DNA of 64,000 nucleotides from an uncultured Bacilli bacterium (GTDB taxonomy: Bacteria > Bacillota_I > Bacilli_A > RF39 > UBA660), in the NCBI GenBank assembly GCA_944329425.1, contig CALVIG010000003.1:51460-115459 (forward strand), written 5' to 3'. A program made the position numbers and the translations under genes. How positions within the stretch are numbered: the stretch's first letter is position 1; the number at the start of each line of letters is the position of its first letter. The notes below the pieces were generated by a model. The model had not been told where the DNA came from, made no database searches, and saw only the letters and a program-made list of their open reading frames with translations. Positions 36,850-58,952 of the stretch are shown piece by piece.

Positions 36850-37779
36850 GTGAAGACAAAGGAGTTTAAAACCCTAGATGAGCAAATAGAAATTTTAAAA
36901 AACCGTGGGTTGGTTATTAATGACATTGATGGTGCGAAAAGATTGCTATTAAGAGAAAATTATTTCTTTATTAACGGATATCGTCATATATTTCTTAAGA
37001 ATCGTAATGGAAATGACTTCATAAAGGGTACTACCTTTGAAGAGTTGTATGCGGTATTTCAGTTTGATAGGAATTTTAGAAACATCTTGTTTAAGAATTT
37101 GCTTATCGTTGAAAACAACTTAAAATCAATACTATCATATTGTTTATCAAAAAAATATGGTATTAAAGAAAAAGATTATTTAAAACCTTCTAATTTTTCT
37201 CAAGACATAAAAAAAATTAGACAAGTAAACGATGTTTTAAGCAAGATTAAAAGGCAAATAAAATTAAATGGTAGGCAGCATAGTGCTACGCTTCACTATT
37301 TAAGTAATTATGGTTATGTTCCTTTATGGATCTTAGTAAAGTTACTATCTTTTGGTATGATTAATGAATTATATTCTATACTAAAACCGGAGGATAAATT
37401 ACTAATTGCAGAATATTATAATTTAGATGTTGAAACGTTAGGAATATACATAGGACTTTTATCTAATTATCGTAATTTGTGCGCCCATGAAGACATTGTA
37501 TATGATCATAAAACGCAAAAAGAAATTCCTGATACTAGATACCATAGAATACTTGATATACCTACCATGAATGATGAATATGAGTATGGTAAAAATGATA
37601 TTTATGCCGTTGTAATAATGTTAAAACAAGTTTTAGACGAAAGGGATTTTAGCTCTTTTATAGGTGAAGTAAGTTACGAACTAAGTTTGTTAGATGGAAG
37701 GGTAGAAGTTATTCCTCAAAGAAAGATTTTAGATAAGATGGGATTTCCCGAAAATTGGGAGGATATCACTAATATTTAA
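36850..37779 (+). CDS. Abi_2 family abortive-infection protein (AbiD/AbiF-like)
   Basis: N-terminal motif FKTLDEQIEILKNRGLVI...ENYFFINGYRHIF is typical of Pfam Abi_2. GTG start. Confidence 0.65.
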   Translation: MKTKEFKTLDEQIEILKNRGLVINDIDGAKRLLLRENYFFINGYRHIFLKNRNGNDFIKGTTFEELYAVFQFDRNFRNILFKNLLIVENNLKSILSYCLSKKYGIKEKDYLKPSNFSQDIKKIRQVNDVLSKIKRQIKLNGRQHSATLHYLSNYGYVPLWILVKLLSFGMINELYSILKPEDKLLIAEYYNLDVETLGIYIGLLSNYRNLCAHEDIVYDHKTQKEIPDTRYHRILDIPTMNDEYEYGKNDIYAVVIMLKQVLDERDFSSFIGEVSYELSLLDGRVEVIPQRKILDKMGFPENWEDITNI

Positions 37780-39729: not shown

Positions 39730-39827
39730 TTTCTTTTTTTAAATTATTAAAAATATAGAATGTTTCTTATTATCAACCTATTTTTAAATCCATATAATAT
39801 AAAAGAGAAATGATGGAGGTTATTTTT

Positions 39828-40724
39828 ATGTATTGTGATAAGTTAGATTCTTGTAATAAAAGTTGTTGTGGACCTTTTAAACGTGTGTATCCTATTCCTG
39901 GGCCTACTGGCCCGACAGGACCCACGGGACCAATGGGAGCAACAGGCCCAACAGGTCCAACAGGTCCAACCGGCCCTACTGGACCAGTAGGTGCTACCGG
40001 ACCAACTGGAAGTGTTGAGGTAAACCCATATGATTTATATGTTCAATCTACGGCAGTACCCGGAGGAGATGGTAGTCAATCTGCACCTTTTCAAACAATA
40101 CAAGAGGCACTAGCAGTATCAAAACCTAATGGCACGATAAACGTTTTAAGTGGCACTTATCCTATCACGCAGCAGATTACTTTAAATATTCCAGGATTAA
40201 CGTTAAAAGGTAAGGCTGGAACAATGATTTTGCTTAAGGCACCGATTGTACCATTTCTATGTACTGGGGGTAATATCACGATTGATGGATTTACCATGAC
40301 AAGTGATGCACCATATCCGGTTGAATTTATACAAATTGCAGGAGATGGGAACCAAATTTTAAATTGTCAGATTTATGGCCCAGACCAGCAGGGAGATTCT
40401 TCAACATGGGTAGTAAACAGGGGATTTGTAACCCAAAATAATGCTACTAATTTATTAGTACGAAATAATGTTTTTCATACGCTAAGGCAACCCGCGTATT
40501 TAAATCCTAACTCTACTGGAACAATTATGGATAACGTTGTTTATAATACTCGTGGGTACGTGGTTGATCAGGCGATATTTTTGTTTTCGGGTAATTCTTG
40601 GGGAATTCCAGAAAATACGGTAGATATTGCGTTACTTGCGGGGACTAAAACTGGTGCGCCTTATGATCCACTATCAGCTTTAGAAGCTAATAATAGTAAT
40701 GTTACAATCAGTGATCAGCGGTAA
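39828..40724 (+). CDS. Collagen-like triple-helix repeat protein with C-terminal right-handed beta-helix domain
   Basis: Cys-rich N-terminus ([16 protein letters not shown]) and about 20 GPT/GAT triplets ([37 protein letters not shown]). It is followed by repetitive N/G/T-rich beta-helix-like rungs. Local GC is elevated. The ATG at 39828 is the preferred start. Confidence 0.7.
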
Positions 40725-42191: not shown

Positions 42192-42428
42192 GACTCTTTA
42201 TAATTGATGTCTTACTTTTTAAATTTTAGAAATATTTATTAGTTTATCTACTAGTTTTTATAAACAGCATAAGATATTTTAAAATATATATTTTTTAAAG
42301 ATTGTTTTGTGATATTTTTATTATTTTTCTAATATAAAAATAACATTTACTTTTATATTAGAAAGATATATAATAACACCCAAAAAGGAGCAATGCGTTT
42401 AATTATAATTATATTGGTATAAAGTCTT

Positions 42429-42660
42429 AGATATTGAGTAGTACATCTAAACACTTTTACTTTTGCAGTAAATGTTTGTGGCATTGTAGTGGGTGTGCTA
42501 CTATGATTATAGAGTTTTATTTTTTTGATTTATTTTTTTATATAAATCTCGGATGCGTTTTTGTTAATAAAATCCCATCAGGGATTTTTTTTGTGCAATT
42601 TTATTTAGCACGAGCACCGCCTTTCTGTAAAAAAAAATTATTTTTACGGAAAGGAGTTTA
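42429..42660 (+). promoter_or_regulatory. Conserved leader upstream of sigma-like regulator copy A (paralogous to 54777-55011)
   Basis: About 85 nt are roughly 80% identical to copy B (AGATATTGAGTAGTACATCTAAACACTTTTACT ... GGGTGTGCTACTATG). This is followed by a terminator-like hairpin plus T-run (42570-42593), the shared CACCGCCTTTCT box and a second hairpin abutting the RBS. Confidence 0.4.
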
Positions 42661-42661
42661 A

Positions 42662-43147
42662 ATGAATATACCTAGGAGACGAAAAAGTAAGGATAATCCT
42701 TATACCTTAGGCGTTAATAATGAAGGTAAGTACTTAGTTTCATTTAAAAATGCTAATAATTATAAAGTGTGTATTGAAGTTAGTTATTTAATTTATAAAA
42801 CATTAAACGAATTTGAATTAAAAGATTTATCTCAGTTAAATGAATTTGATAGACATATAGAACATCTAGATTTAATGGAAAATGATGAAATTCTATATAA
42901 AAGAATTATAAAAAAAGAGTTATCTATTGAAGAAATAGTTAATATTAAAATTTCTAAAGAAAATTTAATTTATGCTATAAATAAACTTTCTATAAATCAA
43001 AAAACAAGAATAATGAAATACTATTTTGATGGTAAAACAGAAAGTGATATTGCTTTGGAAGAAAATGTGACACAGCAATCTGTTCATATAGGTTTAAAAC
43101 GAGCAATAAAAAAATTAAGAGAAATTTTAAAAAGTTTAGAAAAATAG
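42662..43147 (+). CDS. Sigma-70 region-4-like HTH regulator (small alternative-sigma/late-activator-like protein), copy A
   Basis: 161 aa. C-terminal MKYYFDGKTESDIALEENVTQQSVHIGLKRAIKKLREILK fits the sigma-70 region 4 HTH pattern. About 50% identical to the ORF at 55012-55491. Confidence 0.55.
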   Translation: MNIPRRRKSKDNPYTLGVNNEGKYLVSFKNANNYKVCIEVSYLIYKTLNEFELKDLSQLNEFDRHIEHLDLMENDEILYKRIIKKELSIEEIVNIKISKENLIYAINKLSINQKTRIMKYYFDGKTESDIALEENVTQQSVHIGLKRAIKKLREILKSLEK

Positions 43148-43180
43148 TCTGTTATTTTTCATTTTAGTGAGGAAATAGGT

Positions 43181-43245
43181 GAAGGGATATATATCCCTTT
43201 TGCCTATCTTTATTAATTAGGTATGATCTTTGACAACTTAATATT
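43181..43245 (+). promoter_or_regulatory. Conserved terminator hairpin plus TTGACA-containing 21-nt box downstream of sigma-like copy A
   Basis: Hairpin GAAGGGATATATATCCCTTT, then GATCTTTGACAACTTAATATT. The same arrangement, nearly identical, occurs at 55531-55611 after copy B. It lies about 80 nt upstream of the tail-collar gene. Confidence 0.4.
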
Positions 43246-43323: not shown

Positions 43324-44466
43324 ATGAATTTAACAGAACAAACTGTAAGTGGAACCAATGAAGTTAGCTTACAAGATTCACTTAATGCTTCTTTATTGAA
43401 GTTAAAAGTGACAATGGGTGCAAATACAGTAGCACCAGAAGATACAGATTGTTTTATCTATGTAGATAAAGCGTCTAGTGCAAATCCTACGGAAGAAAAG
43501 AAAAGTTATCTTTTTGAACTTTCAGAACCATTAAGATATTGTAATGGAGTAGGAGATGAGTTATTACAAGAAATAAAAATTGTAAATAACGATGTTGTAA
43601 TGAAAACAACGGTAACAAGAAAGGTAGGAGTATCTGAAGATGGTACTTTAAGTGTTTTAGAAACACCTACAACAGAGGAGATTGATGCATATCCAGTTAC
43701 TTTATTTGAAGGAATTAATTATATTTATACTAATTATTCAAATGCGGATATTGAATTAATATATCCAAAAGATACTGATGAAAACAAAATGTTTTTAAAC
43801 AATGCCATTTATTGTAATCACAAGTTAAAAAATGATGGTGAATTTTCGCTTGATGATATTTACTTTAAAGACGCATTTACTAAAACAGAAGATAAATTAA
43901 ACCTAGAAGTAAATAATGCTTCAGTTGATTGTATTACTTCGAATAATAATAAATTTAGCTTAGATAGTGAAGGTAATTTAATTGTTAATTCAATTACTAC
44001 TGCGCAAGGGTCACAAGGCTCTTCATCTGATAATGAAACAATATGTAATTTGATATATCCAGTTGGTAGTATTTATATGTCTGTTAATAGTACTGATCCA
44101 ACAACTTTATTCGGCGGTACATGGGAACAGTTAAAAGATAGATTCCTACTTGGAGCTGGTGATTCCTATGGAAACGGAGCAACCGGTGGAGAAGCAAACC
44201 ATACATTAACTATTAATGAGATGCCAAGCCACACTCACACTCAAAATCCACATACACACAGTGTTAGAGCAAAAGGGTTTAATGGTACTTCGAACTTGAA
44301 TGGATATTATATGCTACGTAGAAATAGAAATGATGATAGCTATGATGATGTCGATCCAAATGCAGCTATGAGTGCAACAGCAACTAACCAAAATACTGGT
44401 GGAGGAGCAAGTCATAATAATATGCCACCATACTTAGTAGTATACATGTGGAAAAGGGTATCTTAA
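43324..44466 (+). CDS. Phage tail-collar (receptor-binding fibre tip) domain protein
   Basis: C-terminal PVGSIYMS...LFGGTWEQL...RFLLGAG...GGEANHTLTINEMPSHTHT...HNNMPPYLVVYMWKR is the tail-collar/MdpB-type domain. The N-terminal part is fibre-like. Confidence 0.6.
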   Translation: MNLTEQTVSGTNEVSLQDSLNASLLKLKVTMGANTVAPEDTDCFIYVDKASSANPTEEKKSYLFELSEPLRYCNGVGDELLQEIKIVNNDVVMKTTVTRKVGVSEDGTLSVLETPTTEEIDAYPVTLFEGINYIYTNYSNADIELIYPKDTDENKMFLNNAIYCNHKLKNDGEFSLDDIYFKDAFTKTEDKLNLEVNNASVDCITSNNNKFSLDSEGNLIVNSITTAQGSQGSSSDNETICNLIYPVGSIYMSVNSTDPTTLFGGTWEQLKDRFLLGAGDSYGNGATGGEANHTLTINEMPSHTHTQNPHTHSVRAKGFNGTSNLNGYYMLRRNRNDDSYDDVDPNAAMSATATNQNTGGGASHNNMPPYLVVYMWKRVS

Positions 44467-44855
44467 TGATAACCCTTCCCATTAAGGATCATTTAATTAT
44501 GCGAGCACTTAATAATTATTCTAATACTGTTTATGAACTTAATATTTTAAAAAGAAGATTAAATTTACTTGTAAATTATGAATCCGAAATTGCTTTGGAA
44601 AAAAATAGGTTAATAAATTTAATAGATAACGAACAACAGGTGATAAAGCAAATGGAAAATGATTTACAAAATTTATCTGGTATTGAAAATAAACTGTATT
44701 ATGAAATTGTTATTAATGGTACTAACGTAACAAAGGCAATAGATAAAGTAGCAACAAATGAATTTATTGATACTTCAACTTTATGGAAAAATTATTATCC
44801 TAAAGTAAAAAAAGAAATAGATAAATTATATCTACTATTATCTAAAGAAAATTAA
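44448..44855 (+). CDS. Hypothetical protein (possible fibre chaperone/accessory), translationally coupled
   Basis: Overlaps the 3' end of the previous gene. 135 aa. No recognisable family. Confidence 0.35.
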   Translation: MEKGILMITLPIKDHLIMRALNNYSNTVYELNILKRRLNLLVNYESEIALEKNRLINLIDNEQQVIKQMENDLQNLSGIENKLYYEIVINGTNVTKAIDKVATNEFIDTSTLWKNYYPKVKKEIDKLYLLLSKEN

Positions 44856-44875: not shown

Positions 44876-47800
44876 ATGAAAGAAATAGAGTTAATTGGAA
44901 AACGAAAAGCAAGAGAAAAACATTTCTTAAAAGAAAATGGAATAATAACAGCTAATGTCTATGATGAAGATATTCATTTTTTAAAAGATGGAAAATATGA
45001 AGAGATTGATAATACACTTATTGAGGAAAATGGCTATTTAGTAAATAAAAATAATGCGTATAAAGTTTCTTTTGCAAAGAAAAGTAAAGATGAACTAATG
45101 GAAATGAGTATAGGTAATAATTATATTAAAACAATGTTGGTTTATCAAAAAGAAGTGGATTTAAAAGAAAATATTACTCAGTCCAAACTTCACAAAAACG
45201 TATGTTATCCTAATATAATAGAAAATGTTGATTTAGAATATAATATTATGCCTGGAAAGGTAAAAGAAGCAATTATATTAAAAAATAAAAATGTTGATTT
45301 AGAAAAATTAGTTTTCATAATTGAAACAAACACAAAATTAGAATTAAAGGAAAATAAAAAAATTATTTCAACGGTAGACAATAATAATTGTTTCGAATTT
45401 GACGCACTTTATATGATAGATGCTAACTTTAAAACAAATAATAATATTAATTATAAATTAACTAAAAGAGATGATGATATATATCAACTTGAATTAATTG
45501 TTGACAAAGAATGGTTAAATAATGAAGAAACAAAATATCCAGTAATAATTGATCCAACAATAACAAATTCCGGTCAGAACAATAGTGTCTATGATACTTA
45601 TATTTATCCTGGTGATACTGGAGTTGATAGAAATAGTCAAGATATTTTAAAAGCAGGGGTTGAAAGAATTGATGGCGTTGATAGGGAAAATAGAACGTTA
45701 ATAAAATTTGATTTGCCTGTAATAGGTACCGGTAGTCAAGTAATAGGTGCCAATTTACAGTTATATGGTTATCCAAAAATACCTTCAGATAGTGAAACAG
45801 ATTTGTTGTTGGCTCATAGAATCACCACAAATTGGGATGAAAGTACTGCTACATGGGATAATATGAATGACAAATTTGATCCGTTGGTTGAAGGTTTAAT
45901 ATTTGTTGGAAGAGGATACTATGATTTTGAAAACGAAACTATTCATCCATTTAATTGTGGTGGTGATATTACTAGATTAGTGAGAAAATGGTACACAGGA
46001 ACGCCTAATTATGGTATTATGTTGAAACAAAATCTATTGAAGTATAATGCAAATATATTACCAGCATTTTATTCAAACAATAATAATTCTACTGGTATAA
46101 ATCCTAAGCCTGTATTATCTATATCATATAGAAATCAAAATGGAATAGAAAATTATATGAATTATCAGACAAAAGGTTTTTATGATGGCGAAGCATATGT
46201 CAATAACTATAATGGAAATTTGACCACAATATTTGATATTGGTTCAACAATAAGTGGAAAAATGCCAATTGGTTTAAATCTTATATATAATACAAATGAT
46301 GTTGTGTTAGAAAAAAATTATGGTTATGGATTAGGGTATAAATTAAATTTACACCAAACTATAAAAGAACAACTTATTGATTCTAAAACATATTTAGAGT
46401 ATTGTGATGAAGATGGTACTTTACATTATTTTTTAAATGAAAAAGCTATGTTTGATGAAAATGGTTATAATATCATTAATACACAAAACATTTATTATGA
46501 TGAAGATGGGTTGGATATGACTATAACAAAAAATAGTAATAGTTATGTGCTTAAAGATAAAAATGGAAATACTATGACATTTATTAAAAATGGTGATAAA
46601 GCATATTTAACTAAGATAGAAGATGTTAATGGTAATAAAAATACTATTGAATATAGTCCTGAGAATGCAATAGTAAAAATAATAGATGCTAATGATAATG
46701 AAATAAATTTAGAATATGGTGCAACTACAATAACTATAATAAGTCCAGAACAAACAGTTACTTTAAGTTATTTAAATAACCAAGTAGTCAGTATAAATAG
46801 TTTAACAGGAATAACTCAATTCGAATATAATGCAAATAATATTATATCTAAAATTATTGATATTGATGGTATGAAAACTACTTATGATTACTATGATCAA
46901 AAACCATACAAAGTAAAAAAAGTATCTGAATATGGTGCTGAAAATACTTTGGGAGAATATTTTGAGATGTTGTATGATTTTGATTCTACAACTATAGTAG
47001 ATTCAAAAGAAAACGCAAAAAATATTATATTTAATTCTCAAGGTAGTGTAGTATCAATTAGTGGTTTGAAGGATAAGGATGATATAAAAAATTCGTATGG
47101 GCTTAGCCAAATAAATGGCACATCTGGAATTACCATTAATAATGGAAACAATAATAAATTATTAAGAACAGAGATACCACTTAAATATGTTAAAAATTTA
47201 TTATCTAATACAAGTTTTGAAAAAAATGTAATTAATTTTACTAGTACAGAAGATGTTAATATGATTATAACTAATGAAACCTCGGAAACAGGTGCTAATA
47301 GTTTAAAAGCTACTAGTACAATTAATAATCAAGCATTAACACAAAGTATAGATGTAGAAAAAGGTGATTATTATACATTTAGTAGTTATATTAAAAATAC
47401 TGGTGATGTTAAATTAATTCTTAGTTACTTTGACAAGAATGGGATTATTATTCAATCTCAAAGTGAATTAATAAAGCCGAGTGATGTTTTTGAAAGATAT
47501 GATGTAACAATAAAGTATCCTGAAGATGCAACAAGTAATTTAACTTTAAAAATAATTTTAGAAGATGCTGGAACAGTATATGTTGATGATGTACAGTTGG
47601 AAACCGGTGAAGTTGCAAATAATTATAATTTATTAGAAAATTCAGATTTTTCTAATGGTTTCTCTGATTGGGAGGTTTCAGCTAGTGATAATTTAACAGG
47701 TGATTTATTATCTATAAATGATGTATTTGAAATTGTTTCTTTGCCAGACAATTTAAACGCACTTAAAATAAAAATGAATCCTGCTTATAATTATATTATG

Positions 47801-50800
47801 GAAAAAACATATAATATAAGTGGAAAAGGCGGAGATGTATTTAATCTTTCATTTTGGTATAAAAATGAAGGTGTAGATTCAGATTTATCAGAGTATTATG
47901 GAAGCAGACCATATATTATTTTTCATTATACAAATCAAGAAGATGGACATTGCATTATTCCTACACCGTTACTTAATATAAATGATCAATCATGGCAATA
48001 TGTTTCGAATGATTTTACTGCTGAAAAAGATTATAGTTCTATTACGATTAGTATTCAACATCAATATACTGCAAATGATTTTTATATTACAAATATGAGT
48101 TTATTTAAAGATATAAGAAATGTTTATTATGAGTATGATGAATTTGGAAATGTAATATTAGAAAAAAATTTAGATGATAATAGTAATAAATATAATTATG
48201 ATAAAGATAATAAATTGATTCAGATGACTAATCCAAAAGGCAAAAATTTTACTATTGAATATGATAATATTTTTAAAAATAGGACTATCAATGGTATGAC
48301 TGATATGGGGGTATCTAATCAATTAAAATATGACAATAATAATAATCCAATTATATCTAGGGTTCAAAAAAATAATATTATAGGTGATATAACAGATGGT
48401 TTATATAAAATAAGATTAAAGGGAAGCGATATATATTTAAGAAATATATCAAATGATATTAAATGTAAATTAGAAAACTGTAACCATGATATATGGAAAT
48501 TAGAAAAGATAGATGAATATGTTAAAATCCATCACTCTATTCTTACTGATAAATATTTTACTGTTCAGAATAATAATATTATTTTATCAAATGAAAATGG
48601 AGATAATTCACTATTTAAGTTGAAGAAAAATAAAAACGGAAGTTATTCTATAAAATTAAAACTAGAGGATAAATACTTAAAATATAATAATTCAGGAATA
48701 GAAATATCAACTTTGATAGATGAAGATTACAGTTTTGAATTTTATTTTGAAACTGTAGATTGTGATTTATTTATTGAAAATAAAGCGGAGTATACAGAAA
48801 ATGGTGCGTTTATAAGTCGAATAATTGATTCATTAAATCATTCTTATAATTATGAAATTGATCAGGAAAAAGGTTTGACTAAATCAGAAACAAACGAAAA
48901 AGGTATTAAAACTAATTATAATTATAATTCTAAAAAGAAACTTATTTCATCTATATGCAACGATAAAAGTGTATTTTATGAATATAATGATAAAAATTTG
49001 TTAAGTAAAGTTAAGCATGGTAAGAAAGAATATAATTTTATTTATGATGAATTTTCTAATGTTAAGACAATAAAAATGGGTAATAATATTAGGCTTATTA
49101 CATATAATTATGATACAAATGGAGATTTGATTTTATTAGATTATGGGAATGAAGGCTCTCTAAATTATGAGTATGACGAATTTTCTAGATTAAGTAAAAA
49201 AACTAAAGAAAATGATACCTATGAATATAAGTATAATGGAAGTGGAGATTTGGTAAAAATTTTATCAAATAATTACATAACTAAATATACTTATGATTTA
49301 GCTAAAAGATTGAGTAAATATAATTTTGATGATTTTATAATTAAATATAAATATGACTCAAATGAAAATATAACGAATATTAAGTATAGTTTGGGTAGCA
49401 TAAATAATGAAATAATAAATACTTTTAATGATGATGATTTGATAATTAATACGTCATTTTCAAATAAAAAAATAAATTATACCTATGATTTACTAGGTAG
49501 ATTAAAAAGTGAAAAAATAAACAATATATATGAAACAAGTTATGAATATATAGAGAATGGAAAAAATACTTCTACTCTATTGAAAAAGCTTAAAACAGGT
49601 AATAATATATATTCATACAAATATGATAAATTAAATAATTTAACGCATGTTTATTATAATGACGACTTATTAACTAAATATTATTATGATGACTATAATC
49701 AGCTTATAAAGGAAATCGATTTTGAAGATAAAAAAATTATAAAATATAAATATGATAATGTAGGTAATATGTTATACAAAAAAGTATATGCTTTGGATAC
49801 CTATGACTTTATTACCCAAGATATATATTATTACAATAATGATGATTGGCAAGATCAATTAACTTCGTTTAATAACACCGCTATTACTTATGATGAAATA
49901 GGGAATCCATTAACTATAGGTAATAATATTAATCTAAACTGGATTAATGGTAGAGAACTAGAAACTTATAATGATGGTACTAACCTAATTTCGTATAAAT
50001 ATAATTCTGAAGGTATAAGAATAAGTAAAAAGGTGAATAACACGGAAACGAAATATTATTTAGAGGATAATGATATAATATTTGAAAAGAGAGGAAATAA
50101 TGTGCTATACTATTTACGTAATGATATAGATGATTTGTTTGGATTTATGTATAATAACGATTTATATTATTATGTAAAAAATAATAAGAATGATATTGTA
50201 GGTATATTAGATAACAGTTATAATATAGTAGCTAAGTATAAATATGATTCTTGGGGAAAAGTAATTTCTATAACTGATAGTCAAGATAACGATATATCAA
50301 ATAATGTTAATAATATAGGAAATATAAATCCGTTTAGATATAGATCTTATTATTATGATTCAGAAACTAAATTATATTATTTAAATAGTAGATATTATAA
50401 TCCGGAATGGAAAAGATTTATTAATCCTGATTCTTATGCTGGACAAATTGGTGGAAATATATTACTTCACAATATATATATATATTCTTTAAATAATCCT
50501 ATTTTATATAGCGATGAAAGTGGTAATATAGTAGGATTAACATCAGTAGCTGCGGGTGTGTTATACGCTTTTGGAATTGCTGTATTTAAAGCTTCTGTGT
50601 ATGTAGCTGTTAGTGGTTTAGTTGTTGGGGGCTCTATTTATGTGGGAAAAGCCATATCCAATAATAAAAGTAAATCAAAATCAAAGACGAAAGCACAAAG
50701 TAAATCTAAAATAAAAACTGCTGTGGCTGCAAAAGCAAAAACTAGTACAAAAAAATATTCGAACAACAATAAGCCATGTACAGAAGCCTATTTTACAAAA

Positions 50801-51079
50801 GATATGAGAGATGTTGTACGTGGTGAAAGATTAACAATTGAAGAAACAATTGCAAAAGTTAATGCTAAGGGAAATGTTATGTGTGATAATTATTGGCCCG
50901 CTAAAGAAGTTGCTACTGCCATTTCTCCAAATCCAATATGTGAAATAAATAGCATTCAGCATAAAGGATATAAATATTACTATCACTTTCATCCAAATAG
51001 AGATACTTATAAGGATGTACATATATTCTTTGAAGGATTACCATTAGAATTTTTTGAAGGGAAGGGAAATTGTAGATGA
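44876..51079 (+). CDS. Rhs/YD-repeat polymorphic toxin (2067 aa): DNRLRE-like domain, CBM-like and ricin-B-like lectin modules, YD repeats, RHS core, variable C-terminal toxin domain
   Basis: RBS GAAAGGAGA. Dozens of YD-type repeats (e.g. YKYDSNENITNIKY, YTYDLLGRL). RHS core end motif FRYRSYYYDSETKLYYLNSRYYNPEWKRFINPD...NIYIYSLNNPILYSDESGN. N-terminal region with DNRLRE-like segment (DRENRTLIKFDL). No signal peptide. Confidence 0.85.
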   Translation: MKEIELIGKRKAREKHFLKENGIITANVYDEDIHFLKDGKYEEIDNTLIEENGYLVNKNNAYKVSFAKKSKDELMEMSIGNNYIKTMLVYQKEVDLKENITQSKLHKNVCYPNIIENVDLEYNIMPGKVKEAIILKNKNVDLEKLVFIIETNTKLELKENKKIISTVDNNNCFEFDALYMIDANFKTNNNINYKLTKRDDDIYQLELIVDKEWLNNEETKYPVIIDPTITNSGQNNSVYDTYIYPGDTGVDRNSQDILKAGVERIDGVDRENRTLIKFDLPVIGTGSQVIGANLQLYGYPKIPSDSETDLLLAHRITTNWDESTATWDNMNDKFDPLVEGLIFVGRGYYDFENETIHPFNCGGDITRLVRKWYTGTPNYGIMLKQNLLKYNANILPAFYSNNNNSTGINPKPVLSISYRNQNGIENYMNYQTKGFYDGEAYVNNYNGNLTTIFDIGSTISGKMPIGLNLIYNTNDVVLEKNYGYGLGYKLNLHQTIKEQLIDSKTYLEYCDEDGTLHYFLNEKAMFDENGYNIINTQNIYYDEDGLDMTITKNSNSYVLKDKNGNTMTFIKNGDKAYLTKIEDVNGNKNTIEYSPENAIVKIIDANDNEINLEYGATTITIISPEQTVTLSYLNNQVVSINSLTGITQFEYNANNIISKIIDIDGMKTTYDYYDQKPYKVKKVSEYGAENTLGEYFEMLYDFDSTTIVDSKENAKNIIFNSQGSVVSISGLKDKDDIKNSYGLSQINGTSGITINNGNNNKLLRTEIPLKYVKNLLSNTSFEKNVINFTSTEDVNMIITNETSETGANSLKATSTINNQALTQSIDVEKGDYYTFSSYIKNTGDVKLILSYFDKNGIIIQSQSELIKPSDVFERYDVTIKYPEDATSNLTLKIILEDAGTVYVDDVQLETGEVANNYNLLENSDFSNGFSDWEVSASDNLTGDLLSINDVFEIVSLPDNLNALKIKMNPAYNYIMEKTYNISGKGGDVFNLSFWYKNEGVDSDLSEYYGSRPYIIFHYTNQEDGHCIIPTPLLNINDQSWQYVSNDFTAEKDYSSITISIQHQYTANDFYITNMSLFKDIRNVYYEYDEFGNVILEKNLDDNSNKYNYDKDNKLIQMTNPKGKNFTIEYDNIFKNRTINGMTDMGVSNQLKYDNNNNPIISRVQKNNIIGDITDGLYKIRLKGSDIYLRNISNDIKCKLENCNHDIWKLEKIDEYVKIHHSILTDKYFTVQNNNIILSNENGDNSLFKLKKNKNGSYSIKLKLEDKYLKYNNSGIEISTLIDEDYSFEFYFETVDCDLFIENKAEYTENGAFISRIIDSLNHSYNYEIDQEKGLTKSETNEKGIKTNYNYNSKKKLISSICNDKSVFYEYNDKNLLSKVKHGKKEYNFIYDEFSNVKTIKMGNNIRLITYNYDTNGDLILLDYGNEGSLNYEYDEFSRLSKKTKENDTYEYKYNGSGDLVKILSNNYITKYTYDLAKRLSKYNFDDFIIKYKYDSNENITNIKYSLGSINNEIINTFNDDDLIINTSFSNKKINYTYDLLGRLKSEKINNIYETSYEYIENGKNTSTLLKKLKTGNNIYSYKYDKLNNLTHVYYNDDLLTKYYYDDYNQLIKEIDFEDKKIIKYKYDNVGNMLYKKVYALDTYDFITQDIYYYNNDDWQDQLTSFNNTAITYDEIGNPLTIGNNINLNWINGRELETYNDGTNLISYKYNSEGIRISKKVNNTETKYYLEDNDIIFEKRGNNVLYYLRNDIDDLFGFMYNNDLYYYVKNNKNDIVGILDNSYNIVAKYKYDSWGKVISITDSQDNDISNNVNNIGNINPFRYRSYYYDSETKLYYLNSRYYNPEWKRFINPDSYAGQIGGNILLHNIYIYSLNNPILYSDESGNIVGLTSVAAGVLYAFGIAVFKASVYVAVSGLVVGGSIYVGKAISNNKSKSKSKTKAQSKSKIKTAVAAKAKTSTKKYSNNNKPCTEAYFTKDMRDVVRGERLTIEETIAKVNAKGNVMCDNYWPAKEVATAISPNPICEINSIQHKGYKYYYHFHPNRDTYKDVHIFFEGLPLEFFEGKGNCR

Positions 51080-51804
51080 TAATAAGAGATAAAGTGACTG
51101 GTGATTTATATAAAAATTTAATGAATTATATTATTTCAAAAAGTGACGTTTTATCAGTATCAGTAAATCTTATTTATAATAAGAAAGTTACGGATAAATT
51201 TATGAAAATTATTACATATAATAATGAGTATGATATTAATAATATTCTAAATGATGTTCCTAAAAAACTAATAGAGGAAATTTCTGAGGAAAACAAGAAT
51301 AATACTTTAATTTTTGATGAAGAATATATAAATAATGAAAAAAGATATTTAATAAAATATATTCAAAATTTTTCAGAAGATGATAGGGTATCTCTCATAT
51401 ATAAAAGAAGAAAAACTTATATAAAAAATATGATTTATTGGCTAGTTTATGAATATAAAACAACTAATTGGTTACGTAAATTTAAAACTAGTATTATTTA
51501 TAAAAAGCGTAAAAATTCATCGTATACTACTTATTATCTCAATCTGACGAAGGATTTAATAGATGATATCCTTAGCAGAAATTCATTTGATGATTGGAAT
51601 TTTCCATTATCTGTTGAAGATATTGCATTTTTTAAGGATAAACAATGTTTATTATGTTCAGAAACTCATGAAAATATGTGGGATTTATATTGTAAAGATC
51701 AAAATGAATATAAGTATTTTAAATCTATTGGTATTAAATTTAATGATTTTAAATATAAATCAGAAGGAAAAAAAGGATTACCTTACAATAATTATTATAT
51801 TTAA
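51076..51804 (+). CDS. Putative cognate immunity protein of the Rhs C-terminal toxin
   Basis: Start overlaps the Rhs stop (ATGA). Cytoplasmic 242-aa protein with no homology recognised. The position is typical for Rhs immunity genes. Confidence 0.45.
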   Translation: MIIRDKVTGDLYKNLMNYIISKSDVLSVSVNLIYNKKVTDKFMKIITYNNEYDINNILNDVPKKLIEEISEENKNNTLIFDEEYINNEKRYLIKYIQNFSEDDRVSLIYKRRKTYIKNMIYWLVYEYKTTNWLRKFKTSIIYKKRKNSSYTTYYLNLTKDLIDDILSRNSFDDWNFPLSVEDIAFFKDKQCLLCSETHENMWDLYCKDQNEYKYFKSIGIKFNDFKYKSEGKKGLPYNNYYI

Positions 51805-51908: not shown

Positions 51909-52208
51909 ATGATAAATTTTATAATAAATTATTGGATTGAGATATTATTGACGTCTATTACATCAGGAATTATATATATTTTTAAACAATATATGGGTTT
52001 AAAAAACGGAATGAAATCTCTTTTAAGAAATGAAATAATAAGAATATATGATAATCAAGAAAAATTAGGATATTGTCCTAGTTATATGAAAGAGAACATT
52101 AAAGAAATGTATGAAAACTACCATAAATTAGGTGGTAATGGAATGGTTACAAAAATGACTAATAAATTATATGAATTACCAAATGTAAAGGAGGATGATA
52201 AAGTATGA
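51909..52208 (+). CDS. BhlA/UviB-like holin-family protein (N-terminal transmembrane helix plus coiled region)
   Basis: 99 aa. Single N-terminal transmembrane segment. First gene of a three-gene overlapping cassette that ends in a lysin. Confidence 0.35.
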   Translation: MINFIINYWIEILLTSITSGIIYIFKQYMGLKNGMKSLLRNEIIRIYDNQEKLGYCPSYMKENIKEMYENYHKLGGNGMVTKMTNKLYELPNVKEDDKV

Positions 52209-52432
52209 AAGAAAAATTGATTTTATCTATTATTAATTTACTTAAAGTAAAATCAATAATAACGCTACTTACATTTGTAGCGTTCTTTTATTTATCTATT
52301 TCAGAAAAAATAGGTAGCGATAATTTTATGCTGATTATAGGAATGATTGCGACTTATTTCTTTAATAAAGATAATTCTGAAAAATTAAAAAATAAATCTA
52401 TGGAAGTGGTAAAAGATGAGCAAGATAACTAA
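52205..52432 (+). CDS. Small two-transmembrane holin-like protein
   Basis: 75 aa. Two hydrophobic helices and a charged C-terminus (KDEQDN). It overlaps both neighbours (ATGA-type coupling). Confidence 0.45.
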   Translation: MKEKLILSIINLLKVKSIITLLTFVAFFYLSISEKIGSDNFMLIIGMIATYFFNKDNSEKLKNKSMEVVKDEQDN

Positions 52433-53153
52433 CTTAATATTTAAAAATGCTAATCATTATGTAACATCTGGCTTTGGTAATAGAAAAGTAATGAATACCA
52501 AAGGAGGCTATACAAGTTCTTTTCATAATGGAACAGATTATGGGACAAATAATGTTAAATTACCACAATATGCTATTGAAAATGGAACTGTATTAAGTTG
52601 TGGTACGGATTCTTTAGGAGGAAAATTTGTTTGGGTTAAATATCCTAGAATAAATGTTAAAATGCTTCATTATCATTTATCTAGTGTTAATTGTAAAACT
52701 AATCAAATAGTATCTAAGGGAACACTTTTAGGATATACTGGTATGAGTGGTAAGGCAACAGGTATTCATTTGCATTTGTCTATTGTTGATCTATCTAATG
52801 GAGAGTTTTTGAATCCTGAGACGTATTCTTATACTGAACAAAGTGAAACATCTGTGCCTGTAATTAATAATTCATTTTTTGGTAATAAATCATATTTTAA
52901 GCGTGGTGATTCATGTGACAATATAGGTAAAGTATGTTATTTTTTTGCAGACTATTTTTATGGATATTTTTGTAAAACTAAAGAGGAGGCTCATAAGTTA
53001 TTAGATGGTAATCTATTTGGACCATATCTTGAGAAATGGGTAAAAGAGTTTCAAGAAAGAGCTAAAGCAGAGGGAAGGTATTATGATAACATTGATGGCT
53101 ACATTGGACCTAAAACTTTAAAAACTTTAGAAAGCTATGGGTTTATTTATTGA
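52416..53153 (+). CDS. M23-family peptidoglycan endopeptidase with C-terminal PG_binding_1 domain (endolysin-like)
   Basis: HNGTDYG ... GMSGKATGIHLHLSI (HxxxD/HxH zinc motifs of LytM/M23). C-terminal ...YYDNIDGYIGPKTLKTLESYGF is the peptidoglycan-binding repeat. No signal peptide. Confidence 0.75.
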   Translation: MSKITNLIFKNANHYVTSGFGNRKVMNTKGGYTSSFHNGTDYGTNNVKLPQYAIENGTVLSCGTDSLGGKFVWVKYPRINVKMLHYHLSSVNCKTNQIVSKGTLLGYTGMSGKATGIHLHLSIVDLSNGEFLNPETYSYTEQSETSVPVINNSFFGNKSYFKRGDSCDNIGKVCYFFADYFYGYFCKTKEEAHKLLDGNLFGPYLEKWVKEFQERAKAEGRYYDNIDGYIGPKTLKTLESYGFIY

Positions 53154-53284: not shown

Positions 53285-54058
53285 ATGACAAAGAGATTAA
53301 AACTATTTATAATAATTACTGTATTATTAATTATAATAATATTTATTTTCAGATTATTTCCTTTTGGATATAATCAATATAAAATTAGCTTGGATTTAAG
53401 TAAAATTACTTTGCCTAAATTTTCATATGATATTAAACAGGAACAAAAAGGTATAATAACTTTTAAATCACATAGAAGTAAATTTATAATTCAAGATGAA
53501 ATAAATGATATGTTTGAATCTTATGATAAATATATTTGTAATAACAAAGTGTATTATTATGATAAAAATCATAATATAACATTTATGGATTATGAAATCT
53601 CAAATAGATTTTTTACTAATAATATTAAATTAATATATCATAGTGGTAAATTTAGTGATAATGAATGTGCAAAAGTATTTGATTATAAACAAATGGATTA
53701 CAGAATTATCCCGGTTAATAGCACAGGTCATTGTTATATTAAAGAAGATAAGTTTGAATATAGAGATGAAAATAATGAATTACATAATGTGTATTATGAA
53801 TGTTTTGGTAATTTAGCATTTAAAAATGGAATGAATAAAATGGAATATATTGATAGAGTTTTATTTTTTAGATGGATTTCTATGAAGGACATAATTAATT
53901 ATTTAAATTATAAAACAAAAGATAAAACTTTTATGAAAAAAATAATAGATAAAAAACATACGTTATATTATAATAATGATTTTTATTTGTTGAAGTGTAA
54001 TAATAAAAATATATATATAGGTGAAAAGTATGATGAATTTAAAAGTTATTGTAATTAA
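53285..54058 (+). CDS. Hypothetical protein with N-terminal transmembrane anchor
   Basis: ORF with RBS AGGAGA. Extremely AT-rich. No family recognised. Confidence 0.35.
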   Translation: MTKRLKLFIIITVLLIIIIFIFRLFPFGYNQYKISLDLSKITLPKFSYDIKQEQKGIITFKSHRSKFIIQDEINDMFESYDKYICNNKVYYYDKNHNITFMDYEISNRFFTNNIKLIYHSGKFSDNECAKVFDYKQMDYRIIPVNSTGHCYIKEDKFEYRDENNELHNVYYECFGNLAFKNGMNKMEYIDRVLFFRWISMKDIINYLNYKTKDKTFMKKIIDKKHTLYYNNDFYLLKCNNKNIYIGEKYDEFKSYCN

Positions 54059-54613: not shown

Positions 54614-54776
54614 AAGTAAAATTATATTTCATTTTTTAAAAACATTAAAATAGTAAAGTTTTAAATCATGTTTTTATTAGTTTTATATTATAAAAATCTC
54701 ATTTACTTTTCTGATGTAAAAGTATATAATAGCACTTAAAAAAAAGCAGTGCTTATTATAAAGTATAAGCGATTTT

Positions 54777-55011
54777 AGATATTTGAGTAGTACATCTATA
54801 AACTTTTACTAGTGCAGTAGTTTAGTAGCATTGCTATTAGGGTGTGCTACTATGTATGAAAAGATATTTAATAGTCAATATTTTATTTTTAATGCCGTAT
54901 GGGGCTTGTTCGTTCAAGTCCCGTGCGGCATTTTTTTTATACCTGTTTTTATTATGTTTAAAATTCGTTCACCGCCTTTTCTATTGAATAACTCAATAGA
55001 AAGGAAGGTAA
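54777..55011 (+). promoter_or_regulatory. Conserved leader upstream of sigma-like regulator copy B (paralogous to 42429-42660)
   Basis: Same conserved 5' block, internal hairpin plus T-run (54894-54938), CACCGCCTTTCT box and RBS-proximal hairpin CTTTCTATTGAATAACTCAATAGAAAG. Confidence 0.4.
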
Positions 55012-55491
55012 ATGAATAATCCAAAAAGACGCAAAAGTAAAGATAATCCATATACTTTAATTTATAATTCACAAGATGATAAATATATTATTTCTTTTAA
55101 TGATTCTAGTAACCATAAAATTATTTTTGAAATAGATCGTTCTTTATATATGTTATTTAATGAATTTGAATTAGAAGACTTATCAGAGTTAAATGAATTT
55201 GATAGACATATAGAGCATCTTAATATAATGGAGAGTGATGAGATTCTATATAAAAGAACCCTGAAAAAGAGTTTATTAGTAGATGACATTGTTGATAAAA
55301 AATTAGAAATGGAAACATTGAGAGAAGCTATAAATGAACTTCCAATGACGCAGAAAAGGAGATTAAAAAAGTACTATTTTGAAAATAAAACGCTGGAAGA
55401 TATAGCAAAAGATGAACATTGCTCAAAAGTGGCTGTTAAATATAGCATTGATTGTGCAATTAGTAATTTAAGAAAAAAATTAAAAAGTTAA
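55012..55491 (+). CDS. Sigma-70 region-4-like HTH regulator, copy B
   Basis: 159 aa. Paralogue of 42662-43147 (shared KSKDNPYTL, LNEFDRHIEHL, KYYF...K..S blocks). Confidence 0.55.
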   Translation: MNNPKRRKSKDNPYTLIYNSQDDKYIISFNDSSNHKIIFEIDRSLYMLFNEFELEDLSELNEFDRHIEHLNIMESDEILYKRTLKKSLLVDDIVDKKLEMETLREAINELPMTQKRRLKKYYFENKTLEDIAKDEHCSKVAVKYSIDCAISNLRKKLKS

Positions 55492-55530
55492 ATTTTTAGG
55501 CTTAACTTTTAGGCTAGAAGTGAGGAAATA

Positions 55531-55611
55531 GATGGAAGGGTAAAATATCCTTTCCATCTGTTTTTGATTTTAATAACAAAACACAGAAGTTGATCTTTGA
55601 CAACTTAATAT
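55531..55611 (+). promoter_or_regulatory. Conserved terminator hairpin plus TTGACA box downstream of sigma-like copy B
   Basis: GATGGAAGGGTAAAATATCCTTTCCATC hairpin, then GATCTTTGACAACTTAATATT (identical 21-mer to copy A). Confidence 0.4.
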
Positions 55612-55880
55612 TTATTCATCAGATACGTTCTTATTGTTCTGGAGCACGTTAACAAGTACGCTTGTCGGTAAATACTTGGTTATAAAACTAGATGGCAACT
55701 AGTATTGCGAAGATAAATAATAAGGTTAAAGATACTTCTGTTCAGCCATAGACTCAATCATTGGGAGCAGTCCGGAGTGATCCTCGGGAGAGTGAAAATC
55801 TCATGGAATTAGTTAGCCACTAATCGTCTGGTGAATGTTAAAAGTACTTGTTTATATTAAAATGGAAGGGAATTTATTAA

Positions 55881-56081: not shown

Positions 56082-56373
56082 TATTAATTAGTAAAAAAAT
56101 ATTATGATTAAAAAGTTTTGCATACATATAAATAGGAGGAAGATAATGTGAATGAAGTTGAATATAATGTTAATGTTTTTGTAAATAAAAATGGTTATAA
56201 TTCAAAAGATAAGAAAATAATTGAAAAAAAATTTAATCAAAAATTATTAAAGATAATTATTTCTATAGAAAAAAATAAAGTTTGTCAAGTTTAAAAAAAT
56301 AAAAAAAGTATAATTTATATTTTTAAAAATTTATTTTAGTATTAATTTGCAAGAAAGGAGGGTGCTTTCTATA

Positions 56374-57984: not shown

Positions 57985-58004
57985 TTACCTTGCTAACACG
58001 TATC

Positions 58005-58270
58005 CTGGACATGGAGGATCTGATCCAGGCGCATCAAATGGTGATATTATTGAAAAAGATTATACTTTAAAAATATCTAATTACATGTATGATAGGTTTA
58101 AAGATTTGGGTATACCGGTGGTTATAACTAGAACAACGGATAAAACTCTTAATCCAACAGACAGGGTAAATGTTATTAAACCCAACATAACTAGTAAAGA
58201 TGATATAGTTATTTCTAATCACTTAAATGCCGGAGGTGGCGAAGGTCAAAGTGTAACAATAAATGTATAA
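58005..58270 (+). pseudogene. 3' fragment of the cwlC-type Amidase_3 gene (start-less), resuming at ...PGHGGSDPGASNGD
   Basis: The frame is open from the element junction with no start codon. It contains GHGGSDPGA, VITRTTD, and HLNAGGG (the H.NAGGG zinc-ligand region), then stops prematurely shortly after. Confidence 0.6.
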
Positions 58271-58309
58271 CAATTAAAGCCTAAATATAGAAAGAAATGA
58301 GGAAATGTT

Positions 58310-58660
58310 ATGAATATTAGTTACACTAGAAAAGGTGATTATTTATTACCTAATTTGATATTAGAAAATAAAGAACAATATAATATAAGAAAATATGGAT
58401 TATTAAGATTAGATTATATTAAAAATAATAAGAAAAGTTTATACATTAAATTACTTATGAATGATGAATTAAATAAATATTTACATGATATAGATGAATT
58501 AGTAGAAGATAAAGTAAATGAATTAATAAAGATACTTGCTGAAAAAGAAAATATAAATGAAGAAATGAAATGTAATCAACAATTACTATGGATAAAAAAT
58601 ATGAATAATATAAAAAATAGAGCTGAAGAAATTATATTAAAGGAGTATATCTATGTGTGA
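58310..58660 (+). CDS. TnpV-like transposon-encoded protein (Tn4451 TnpV family)
   Basis: N-terminus MNISYTRKGDYLLPNLIL and C-terminal LWIKNMNNIKNRAEEII resemble TnpV proteins, which pair with large serine recombinases. Confidence 0.45.
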   Translation: MNISYTRKGDYLLPNLILENKEQYNIRKYGLLRLDYIKNNKKSLYIKLLMNDELNKYLHDIDELVEDKVNELIKILAEKENINEEMKCNQQLLWIKNMNNIKNRAEEIILKEYIYV

Positions 58661-58952
58661 TATAACAGAAAAAGAATGGAATCAAAAATATTTACCTTTT
58701 TATCATAATTTCAGTAAGTATATGATTAATTACATTATTCCTGATGTAGTAGCTTTTTATATAGCTAATAGTTATAGTAGAAAATGTTTATGTGATTCAT
58801 CGCTTTATAATCATATTAATTCTGCAAAAGATGTATTTAATGTAAGCTGCGATACAAAAAAATTAATACCTAAAATCGAAGAAATATTAAGAATAAAATA
58901 TAATCTAAAAATAGTAAATAATAATCCATTAAGATTAAAAAGATGTTATTAA
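58653..58952 (+). CDS. Hypothetical protein
   Basis: ORF overlapping the tnpV-like stop. No family recognised. Confidence 0.3.
   Translation: MCDITEKEWNQKYLPFYHNFSKYMINYIIPDVVAFYIANSYSRKCLCDSSLYNHINSAKDVFNVSCDTKKLIPKIEEILRIKYNLKIVNNNPLRLKRCY

Follow-up and report, generated by a model that had tools for sequence, protein, structure and literature searches.

We analysed a 64,000-nucleotide stretch of DNA from an uncultured Bacilli bacterium of the RF39 lineage (contig CALVIG010000003.1, positions 51,460 to 115,459; the whole of this stretch is termed the window) and investigated a cassette in which a phage-fibre-like gene lies upstream of the gene for an Rhs toxin. The window is a low-GC Firmicute-type chromosome. 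In the cassette, at 42.3–55.6 kb, the genes are tightly packed and all lie on the + strand. The gene order, which is kept in related loci (given below by their L numbers), runs from a sigma-like regulator through the fibre gene, an optional small open reading frame (ORF), a signal-less and lectin-decorated Rhs gene, and an immunity gene to the holins and an endolysin. This module of ~13 kb is best read as a self-contained bacteriocin unit that would carry its own regulator, immunity gene, and holin/endolysin cassette.

Domain structure of the fibre-like protein

The fibre gene (43324–44466, +) encodes a protein of 380 amino acids that contains the motifs GGEANHTLTINEMPSHTHT and MPPYLVVYMWKR, and the ORFs were confirmed where a preliminary description of this DNA had placed them. 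That description had assigned the C-terminus to a tail-collar/receptor-binding tip domain. The receptor-binding tip was supported by Pfam, by PHROG, and by phage antireceptors, whereas the Collar family was not; the Pfam family to which the tip belongs is a sister of Collar. Residues 241–379 matched Pfam PF21939 (Gp10_C) with an E-value of 1.1e-24 and 88.4 bits (cut-off 27) over profile positions 2–139 of 139, and PF07484 (Collar) gave no match in the 380-residue protein at E ≤ 0.01, nor at E ≤ 1. PF21939 was carried by all of the 120 listed homologues except one fragment. Twelve PHROG families matched the protein, and 11 of them are annotated as tail proteins; phrog_1800, "tail collar fiber protein", matched at 4e-6.

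A tblastn search with the fibre-like protein gave 427 phage records, including antireceptors and short tail fibres, none of which covered more than ~75% of the protein. The closest phage matches were antireceptors of Lactobacillus delbrueckii phages, which are 627 amino acids long and encoded at the end of the tail module; the identity was 38% over residues 148–379 of the window protein (Ld25A gp20). Foldseek searches with an AlphaFold model of the full protein retrieved the T4 gp10 entries 2fkk and 5iv5 and many models named "baseplate protein". The structure prediction proposed in the preliminary description yielded T4 gp10-like matches, although these PDB matches were weak and driven by the tip, and the neck and the tip were modelled with a predicted local distance difference test (pLDDT) score of 40–70. 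The N-terminal domain gave generic jelly-roll/SPRY matches. Because its PDB matches were weak and generic, we leave the fold of this domain unnamed.

The alignment of 35 full-length homologues, the comparison of short and long forms, and the structure model gave a three-part anatomy of the protein: an N-terminal beta-sandwich (residues 1–150), a neck (~170–226), and the Gp10_C tip (241–379). The beta-sandwich was predicted confidently (pLDDT ~90) and matched no PHROG family. It is optional, and many members of 190–260 amino acids keep the first residues (MNxTxQ) and then continue straight to the neck. The N-domain also occurs internally in genuine phage tail fibres with tail-protein N-termini and Peptidase_S74 C-termini. 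Four phage tail fibres of 580–974 amino acids (P0297, P0301, P0349, and P0358) have an internal beta-sandwich and end in the Peptidase_S74 intramolecular chaperone domain.

The neck contains the invariant motif DDIYFKDAFTK...NNKFSLDxxGNLxVNS and is the best-conserved stretch of the protein. In the tip, the framework is conserved, whereas the central loops (residues ~305–360) are hypervariable with insertions and deletions among the 35 homologues. Long variants of 613–682 amino acids have additional domains inserted between the neck and the tip. The cassette protein shares a homologous C-terminal tip domain with the antireceptors of L. delbrueckii phages (LL-H group, Ld25A gp20) and with the tips of T4 gp10/gp12. 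The L. delbrueckii antireceptors differ from it in that they are ~630 amino acids or longer, are encoded in a tail module, and lack the DDIYFKDAFTK neck motif (as compared with Ld25A). An exhaustive search with residues 1–240 gave 280 clusters (50% identity) at E ≤ 1e-3, 94 of which were found at E ≤ 1e-10. No hydrophobic leader was observed at the fibre N-terminus of any relative.

Linkage of the fibre gene to the Rhs gene

We scanned one genome per species with the fibre-like protein as the query and obtained 49 loci, all of which came from metagenome-assembled genomes (MAGs) of uncultured gut bacteria labelled Bacilli, Erysipelotrichaceae, Tenericutes, "Mycoplasma sp. CAG:776", or "Clostridium sp. 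CAG:1000". Downstream DNA was sufficient in 46 of these loci; in approximately 43 of them, a gene for an Rhs protein of ~2050 amino acids with the N-domain of the window protein came directly after the fibre gene or after the small ORF. In regards to the reverse direction, an alignment of the Rhs N-domain gave 80 metagenome loci. The fibre gene was located immediately upstream in 72 of these; three had too little upstream sequence and five had no fibre gene. Four of the five fibre-less loci (L128 and L135–L137) are the most distant (25–32% identity) and have a Sec signal peptide before the shared domain, and the fifth had only 766 nt of upstream sequence. These results establish a two-way linkage between the fibre gene and the Rhs gene. 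The fibre partner accompanies the signal-less Rhs proteins and is missing from the WapA-like relatives, which have a signal peptide. The genes of the latter, at 2570–4216 in L128, 3963–10247 in L135, 2347–4980 in L136, and 2665–5322 in L137, form a natural contrast group.

Two variations of the arrangement were observed. In L039 (9989–12001), the fibre gene is followed by holin-like genes with no Rhs gene between them, and an Rhs fragment lies ~7.7 kb upstream; this locus is probably a deletion or rearrangement derivative. L018 (9983–12135) and L033 (9352–11378) have tandem fibre genes before a single Rhs gene, a hint that two receptor-binding subunits may be used as alternatives or in combination.

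The preliminary description had noted that the element encodes no sheath, tube, or baseplate, and this held among the ORFs scanned. No sheath, tube, baseplate, tape-measure, or capsid family was found in the larger ORFs of the low-GC regions and around the cassette; the ORFs at 1–18 kb and 31–36 kb, which were not scanned individually, are housekeeping-like by their size and by synteny with L002. No tail genes were observed within 10 kb in the Pfam-annotated relatives L001–L007, which occupy chromosomal sites and sites resembling integrative and conjugative elements (ICEs). The fibre gene therefore does not lie in a tail morphogenesis module in the window or in L001–L007, and its gene context is neither that of a tailocin nor that of a virion fibre. 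The comparison of gene content likewise gave no consistent linkage to complete tail modules, which was the arrangement that the preliminary description had named as contrary to its proposal. A megablast search of the 42.6–54.1 kb region against phages and plasmids gave zero matches, and no relative was found when 2.9 million IMG/VR contigs were scanned for the signature of the family.

The best explanation of the fibre-like protein is that it would be a phage receptor-binding protein that has been severed from any tail and now serves as the dedicated partner of a signal-less Rhs protein. We weighed three other explanations against the same evidence. The preliminary description had suggested that the gene could be a leftover of an ancestral phage, which would make it a functionless relic of a degraded prophage that took in an Rhs gene. 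In its favour, the neighbouring genes include lysis genes of phage origin, a regulator of the phage type, and a serine recombinase. However, the fibre gene is intact in all relatives, comprising more than 100 loci with 40–80% protein identity. The same gene order is found at unrelated sites without tail genes, both chromosomal and ICE-like; among homologues with 50–80% identity, one cassette lies beside relA/aspS and another in a region that resembles a conjugative element and contains TraG and CHAP genes. The ratio of nonsynonymous to synonymous substitution rates (dN/dS), determined against six relatives, was 0.14–0.19 at a dS of ~1 in all three parts of the protein. This purifying selection indicates that the fibre is not a relic, and a leftover gene, being contradicted by these data, is hardly credible.

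The fibre-like and Rhs proteins could also be accessories of a particle for which the genes lie elsewhere. This could be a tailocin, the tail of a helper phage, or a tail hijacked in the manner of a phage-inducible chromosomal island (PICI), and the neck would then attach to a baseplate. All three modules of the fibre-like protein are phage tail-fibre modules, the cassette contains phage-type lysis genes, and it is often located in or next to mobile elements. Against such a particle stand the absence of tail genes around the annotated relatives and of the family signature from the IMG/VR contigs. In addition, the fibre-like protein appears to lack an N-terminal tail-attachment region of the kind present in the phage proteins that share its N-domain, its neck motif does not occur in the phage antireceptor, and its linkage is specifically to the Rhs gene in both directions. 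We consider a particle encoded elsewhere improbable.

A role on the producer side, as an assembly or stabilising chaperone or as a tether that holds the Rhs protein to the cell surface or the cell wall, was weighed as the third explanation, since linkage alone is silent on the function of the partner. Eag and Lap are small dedicated adaptors that are encoded upstream of other Rhs and LXG toxins and are needed by them. The tip of the fibre-like protein, however, is the receptor-binding end of phage antireceptors and shows the conserved framework and hypervariable loops typical of host-range determinants. The additional domains that the long variants carry between neck and tip also fit exchangeable binding modules rather than chaperones. 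A producer-side role is unlikely on these grounds, and a severed phage receptor-binding protein dedicated to the Rhs toxin accounts better for the tip.

Rhs toxin and putative immunity gene

The Rhs gene (44876–51079, +) encodes a polymorphic toxin of 2067 amino acids that consists of an N-domain (residues 1–230), lectin modules, a YD shell, a core (1790–1883), and a C-terminal toxin. Its identity was supported by matches to RHS_repeat (3e-18), the TIGR03696 core (1.6e-15), and YD_repeat_2x, as well as by a variable C-terminus with an adjacent immunity gene. The modules are DNRLRE/CBM96, CBM_4_9/NTTRR-F1, and a weak match to a ricin-type lectin (RicinB). A weak sub-threshold match to DUF7948 was also obtained in the Pfam/NCBIfam scans.

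The N-terminus of the Rhs protein is strongly conserved among the aligned relatives (MKEIELxxKRKxREKHFL...EEIDNTL). The window sequence, MKEIELIGKRKAREKHFL, has no hydrophobic leader or signal peptide, and the same was true of 26 relatives. No LysM, CWB, or SLH cell-wall domain was matched either, so that neither the signal peptide nor the wall-binding domain that would mark a WapA-type toxin was found. Scans of the whole protein and of residues 1–240 against Pfam and NCBIfam gave neither a PAAR/VgrG-binding domain (type VI secretion) nor an LXG/WXG domain (type VII secretion), and the SpvB, TcdB, and TcA families were not found in the Rhs protein or its neighbours.

Directly after the core motif, residues ~1886–1925 (50530–50650) form a Gly/Ala/Val-rich hydrophobic stretch followed by a Lys/Ser-rich linker. 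The C-terminal toxins differ in 27 other loci (within the set L002–L054). Whatever the type of toxin, nearly all of them begin either with a hydrophobic stretch rich in Gly and Ala or with an amphipathic helix rich in Lys, after which comes a linker rich in Lys, Ser, and Thr. This recurrence points to a common, presumably membrane-active "pre-toxin" element.

The gene at 51076–51804 (+), the start of which overlaps the Rhs stop codon, encodes a putative cognate immunity protein of 242 amino acids that matched no family. Its homologues were found only where the Rhs C-terminus also matches (L002, L036, L040, and L048–L050), and thus it co-varies with the toxin type. Several relatives have orphan toxin/immunity arrays downstream. 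Variable C-terminal toxins with immunity genes and orphan arrays are the pattern described for polymorphic toxins by Zhang et al. 2012 (PMC3482391), a study that lists tail-fibre repeats inside toxin polypeptides only.

These observations bear on whether the complex could be directed at host or other eukaryotic glycans (mucus, epithelium, or protists) and not at competing bacteria. The closest lysis-released analogues, the Tc toxins and the large clostridial toxins, act on eukaryotic cells, several lectin-type modules are present on the Rhs protein, and its toxin domain belongs to no known family. A eukaryotic target nevertheless appears improbable: the co-variation of the overlapping gene with the toxin type and the orphan arrays are a hallmark of interbacterial polymorphic toxins (PMC3482391), and the nearest homologues of the tip come from phages of Gram-positive bacteria.

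Lysis genes

In the window, the immunity gene is followed by lysis genes, and such genes were also located downstream of it in at least 18 of the 28 non-redundant loci, which are those with a complete Rhs gene. The first gene in the window (51909–52208, +) encodes a lysis-cassette component of 99 amino acids with one N-terminal hydrophobic segment (phrog_4105, 1e-16), relatives of which directly precede the endolysin gene in 11 of the 28 loci. The second (52205–52432, +) overlaps both neighbouring genes and encodes a holin-like protein of 75 amino acids with two hydrophobic segments. Homologues of this protein were found in 8 of the 28 loci, and PF05105 (Phage_holin_4_1, the TcdE family) occupies this position in six others. 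The third (52416–53153, +) encodes an endolysin-like M23 peptidoglycan endopeptidase of 245 amino acids that matched Pfam Peptidase_M23 (9e-14) and PHROG endolysin and metallo-endopeptidase families. M23 peptidases were present in 13 of the 28 loci and GH25 muramidases in two. Holin and peptidoglycan hydrolase genes thus adjoin the putative cargo gene, which is the gene arrangement of type 10 secretion system (T10SS)-like, or lytic, release.

Small coupled ORF

The small ORF between the fibre and Rhs genes (44466–44855, +) was confirmed as real, conserved, and translationally coupled to the fibre gene. The fibre stop codon and an ATG overlap as TAATG at 44464–44468, behind the purine-rich ribosome-binding site GGAAAAGGG. 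Because of this overlap and this site, the likely product is the protein of 129 amino acids that starts at ATG 44466 and not that of 135 amino acids from GTG 44448. Gene callers placed an identical overlap between the fibre gene and the small ORF in L002.

The small ORF is represented by 89 homologous clusters, in which the C-terminal half is invariant, and about a third of the cassettes have it (19 of the 49 genome loci and 21 of the 80 obtained from metagenomes). Its product matched no family of Pfam, PHROG, or NCBIfam. The AlphaFold model (pLDDT 88) is all-helical, with a long helix (residues 18–69) and a three-helix bundle (72–126). The C-terminus bears a weak resemblance to sigma-factor region 4, which made up nearly all of the top Foldseek matches, with target template modelling (TM) scores of 0.5–0.67 and weak E-values of 0.2–1, and a profile search of the PDB gave coiled-coil noise only. 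The protein was rejected as a paralogue of the sigma-like proteins of the cassette (hhalign probability 0.1%) and has no similarity to the ORF after the Ld25A antireceptor. We read it as an optional accessory that is more likely to be a helix-turn-helix-type regulator than a fibre chaperone; a role as a coiled-coil chaperone or adaptor, like that of T4 gp57A, is less likely.

Regulatory modules

The gene upstream of the fibre gene, sig1 (42662–43147, +), encodes a sigma-70 region-4-like regulator of 161 amino acids (Sigma70_r4_2, 5e-7; phrog_11138, 6e-13); the NCBIfam sigma families matched below their cut-offs. About half of the related loci have a sig1 homologue before the fibre gene. In the window, sig1 is preceded by a leader/promoter region (42312–42661, +) and followed, within 43166–43245 (+), by a hairpin (43166–43200) and the promoter-like 22-nt box TGATCTTTGACAACTTAATATT (43224–43245).

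This module of ~0.9 kb (42312–43245) is directly repeated around the cassette at 54668–55612 (+), with a spacing of 12,353 nt. In each copy, a leader that contains a terminator-like hairpin is followed by a sigma-like gene, a second hairpin, and the 22-nt box. In copy 2, the leader hairpin lies at 54891–54932, the second sigma-like gene (159 amino acids) at 55012–55491, and the box, after its own hairpin, at 55591–55612; the sequence of the box is identical in both copies. The leader/promoter region of copy 1 is a direct repeat of 54668–55011 with 76–89% identity. Copy 2 faces recombinase genes and not a toxin operon. A second sigma-like gene also closes the cassette in L003, L006, L010, L014, L017, and L019.

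The untranslated leaders at 42434–42600 and 54783–54940 are 89% identical over 37 nt (TTGAGTAGTACATCTA...). Both end in a hairpin resembling an intrinsic terminator, at 42569–42588 (with a T-run) and at 54891–54932 (18 bp, strong). No Rfam family was matched in the leader upstream of the sigma-like genes, which could be an attenuator or a riboregulator.

In 21 of 24 non-identical loci, the intergenic alignment revealed a GTTCTTTGACAATTTAATA-type box and a hairpin between the sigma-like and fibre genes. The exact 22-nt box was rejected as a family-wide motif because it occurs in three loci only, and the degenerate box is visible only by alignment. We infer that the conserved box is a promoter served by the sigma-like factor. 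In addition, a pemK RNA motif (Rfam RF02913) was found downstream of the box and ahead of the start codon of the fibre gene in six of the nine relatives scanned: L006 (9842–9921), L017 (2391–2468), L022 (6106–6184), L026 (9849–9906), L030 (9874–9931), and L081 (3905–3983). The scores were 44–57 bits against a gathering score of 34.8. The fibre leader of the window has no pemK RNA; one was located at 55726–55806, where it follows the second box and precedes small ORFs and the serine recombinase gene.

Adjacent genes

Between the endolysin gene and the second regulatory module, the gene at 53285–54058 (+) encodes a protein of 257 amino acids with an N-terminal membrane anchor, which matched no family and has no homologue in the related cassettes. 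Directly 3′ of the cassette, the 56347–61474 region encodes a large serine recombinase (Resolvase, Recombinase, zinc ribbon, and DUF4368), TnpV, and a protein of 701 residues in which an EcoRI-type N6-adenine methylase is fused to a C5-cytosine methylase. This region resembles the end of a Tn4451/Tn5397-like mobile element. In L006, conjugation genes of the TraG and CHAP types are found next to the cassette.

To the left of the cassette, the window is syntenic with L002, where this flank holds housekeeping genes annotated with Pfam, and the ORFs at 8–11 kb have sizes consistent with EF-G and EF-Tu. An ORF of ~1040 amino acids that precedes some cassettes was rejected as a further component, since it encodes isoleucyl-tRNA synthetase. 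Just upstream of the cassette, the gene at 39810–40724 encodes a protein of 304 amino acids, the stalk of which is made of collagen-like GPT repeats and the head of a right-handed beta-helix/DUF1565 domain. The architecture is BclA- or fibre-like, and the gene is not present in the syntenic locus L002. An Abi_2 (abortive-infection-like) protein is encoded at 36850–37779, between rpsI and the gene for an HtrA-type protease, and occupies the same position in L002.

Discussion

We favour the reading that the cassette encodes a lysis-released Rhs bacteriocin, the targets of which would be recognised by a tail-less, phage-derived, trimeric binding subunit, and we put the probability of this full mechanism at roughly one half. 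The sigma-like factor would switch the operon on from the conserved TTGACAA-containing box. The fibre-like and Rhs proteins would then build up in the cytoplasm, because neither of them has a signal peptide. The fibre-like protein, probably a trimer like its phage relatives, may dock on the Rhs protein; the candidate docking surfaces are the invariant neck and N-terminal peptide on its own side and the conserved N-domain on the side of the Rhs protein. A fraction of the producers would be lysed by the holins and the M23 endolysin, which would release the complex, as suggested by the gene content and by analogy with the Tc toxins and the Clostridium difficile pathogenicity locus (PaLoc). After release, the hypervariable Gp10_C tip and the lectin modules of the Rhs protein might bind wall glycopolymers of related Gram-positive bacteria. 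The Rhs shell would free its C-terminal cargo, and the hydrophobic or amphipathic segment observed at the front of the cargo may carry the variable toxin into the target. Sister cells would be shielded by the immunity protein encoded directly downstream.

The suggestion of the preliminary description that the fibre-like protein could provide target-cell recognition for the toxin thus gains indirect support from comparative sequence data, namely the two-way linkage across more than 100 diverged loci, the antireceptor-like hypervariable tip, the lack of signal peptides, and the lysis cassette. More tentatively, the cassette may represent a new class of soluble, tail-less toxin particles in which a trimeric phage receptor-binding protein sits directly on an Rhs cocoon and is released by programmed lysis, widespread in uncultured gut Bacilli. 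We likewise consider it possible, with the same reserve, that this class extends over RF39-, RFN20-, and Erysipelotrichales-like MAGs and is a Gram-positive counterpart of the Tc toxins and the umbrella particles.

Several observations weigh against the mechanism proposed above. The fibre-like protein was modelled as a monomer; because the neck and the tip of this model are of low confidence, as given above, the argument for trimerisation is one of homology only. Any docking surface must be small, because the N-terminal beta-sandwich is dispensable in the forms of 190–260 amino acids. The correlation between neck and Rhs N-domain distances is weak (Spearman 0.31), and since the value for the tip was 0.22, there is no clear co-evolution signal. 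About a third of the loci have no lysis cassette within 4.5 kb, and the fibre gene has no adjacent Rhs gene in L039, L047, and L052. The C-terminal toxin of ~110 amino acids belongs to no recognisable family, and the bacterial target is for this reason read solely from the arrangement of the immunity gene. Mirror-tree co-evolution of the neck or the tip with the Rhs N-domain gave weak correlations throughout and was not used as evidence.

Lysis-dependent release of a large signal-less toxin has been reported for YenTc of Yersinia entomophaga (PMC10847048), and a further precedent is the TcdR/TcdE/TcdL system of C. difficile (PMC12485765). The toxin complexes (Tc), which are composed of TcA and the TcB/TcC Rhs cocoon and released by a T10SS (PMC10847048), resemble the cassette in that receptor binding is assigned to a component other than the large signal-less Rhs-shell toxin, that genes for a holin and an endolysin are close by, and that the locus has a regulator of its own. 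They differ in the receptor-binding component, since TcA is a pore-forming pentamer of ~1.4 MDa, whereas the partner in the cassette is a phage-fibre tip protein of 190–680 amino acids. Moreover, the cassette gave no match to TcA, TcB, or SpvB, its host is a Gram-positive-type gut bacterium, and the immunity gene implies bacterial targets.

The C. difficile PaLoc, which comprises the sigma factor TcdR, the holin TcdE, and the endolysin remnant TcdL (PMC12485765), likewise has a small alternative regulator of the sigma type and a holin next to a large toxin without a signal peptide. The toxins of the PaLoc are unrelated to the Rhs protein, however, and receptor binding resides inside the toxin polypeptide, with no separate fibre gene. 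The BCN5 locus of C. perfringens (UviA/UviB) shows the same likeness and the same differences, with a bacteriocin as the cargo. Tailocins (R- and F-type, diffocins, and monocins) also employ a phage receptor-binding protein for specificity, a phage lysis cassette, and a phage-type regulator. In contrast, the cassette has no tube, sheath, tape measure, or baseplate, and killing would be by an enzymatic toxin and not by membrane puncture. The umbrella particles of Streptomyces (UmbA/B/C), described by Zhao et al. in 2024, are said to consist of a soluble polymorphic toxin with separate lectin-type target-selecting subunits. Their ALF-repeat UmbC and trypsin-like UmbA lectins are unrelated to the cassette proteins, and the particles are reportedly secreted and not released by lysis.

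The WapA-type Rhs toxins of Gram-positive bacteria, known from Bacillus subtilis and Streptococcus suis, are Sec-dependent and wall-anchored (PMC12704120). WapA shares with the cassette Rhs protein the YD shell, the Rhs core, a variable C-terminal toxin with an immunity gene, and a DNRLRE module near the N-terminus. It has a Sec signal peptide and wall-anchoring domains, whereas the cassette Rhs protein has neither.

No source gave a name to the proteins of the cassette, and none of the open-access papers and preprints searched reported an Rhs toxin and a lysis cassette accompanied by a stand-alone gene for a phage receptor-binding protein. The parts are all of known kinds (an Rhs toxin, a phage tip, holin/endolysin release, and a sigma-type regulator); their combination and the contrast with the signal-peptide relatives appear to be new.

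The export, target finding, and entry of the Rhs toxins of Gram-positive bacteria are little understood beyond the Sec-dependent WapA. The cassette points to a second route, in which the toxin is released by lysis and relies on a separate phage-derived receptor-binding subunit. Signal-less Rhs proteins with fibre and lysis genes, as opposed to signal-peptide Rhs proteins without a fibre, provide a clean comparative handle on these two routes. If the proposed mechanism is true, the specificity could be re-programmed by swaps of the fibre tip and the payload by swaps of the Rhs C-terminus. As a modular scaffold of two parts in which both tip and toxin can be exchanged, the cassette would then lend itself to the engineering of narrow-spectrum antibacterials. 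The mechanism would also explain how the abundant, uncultured gut Bacilli compete and would show a phage fibre working without a tail.

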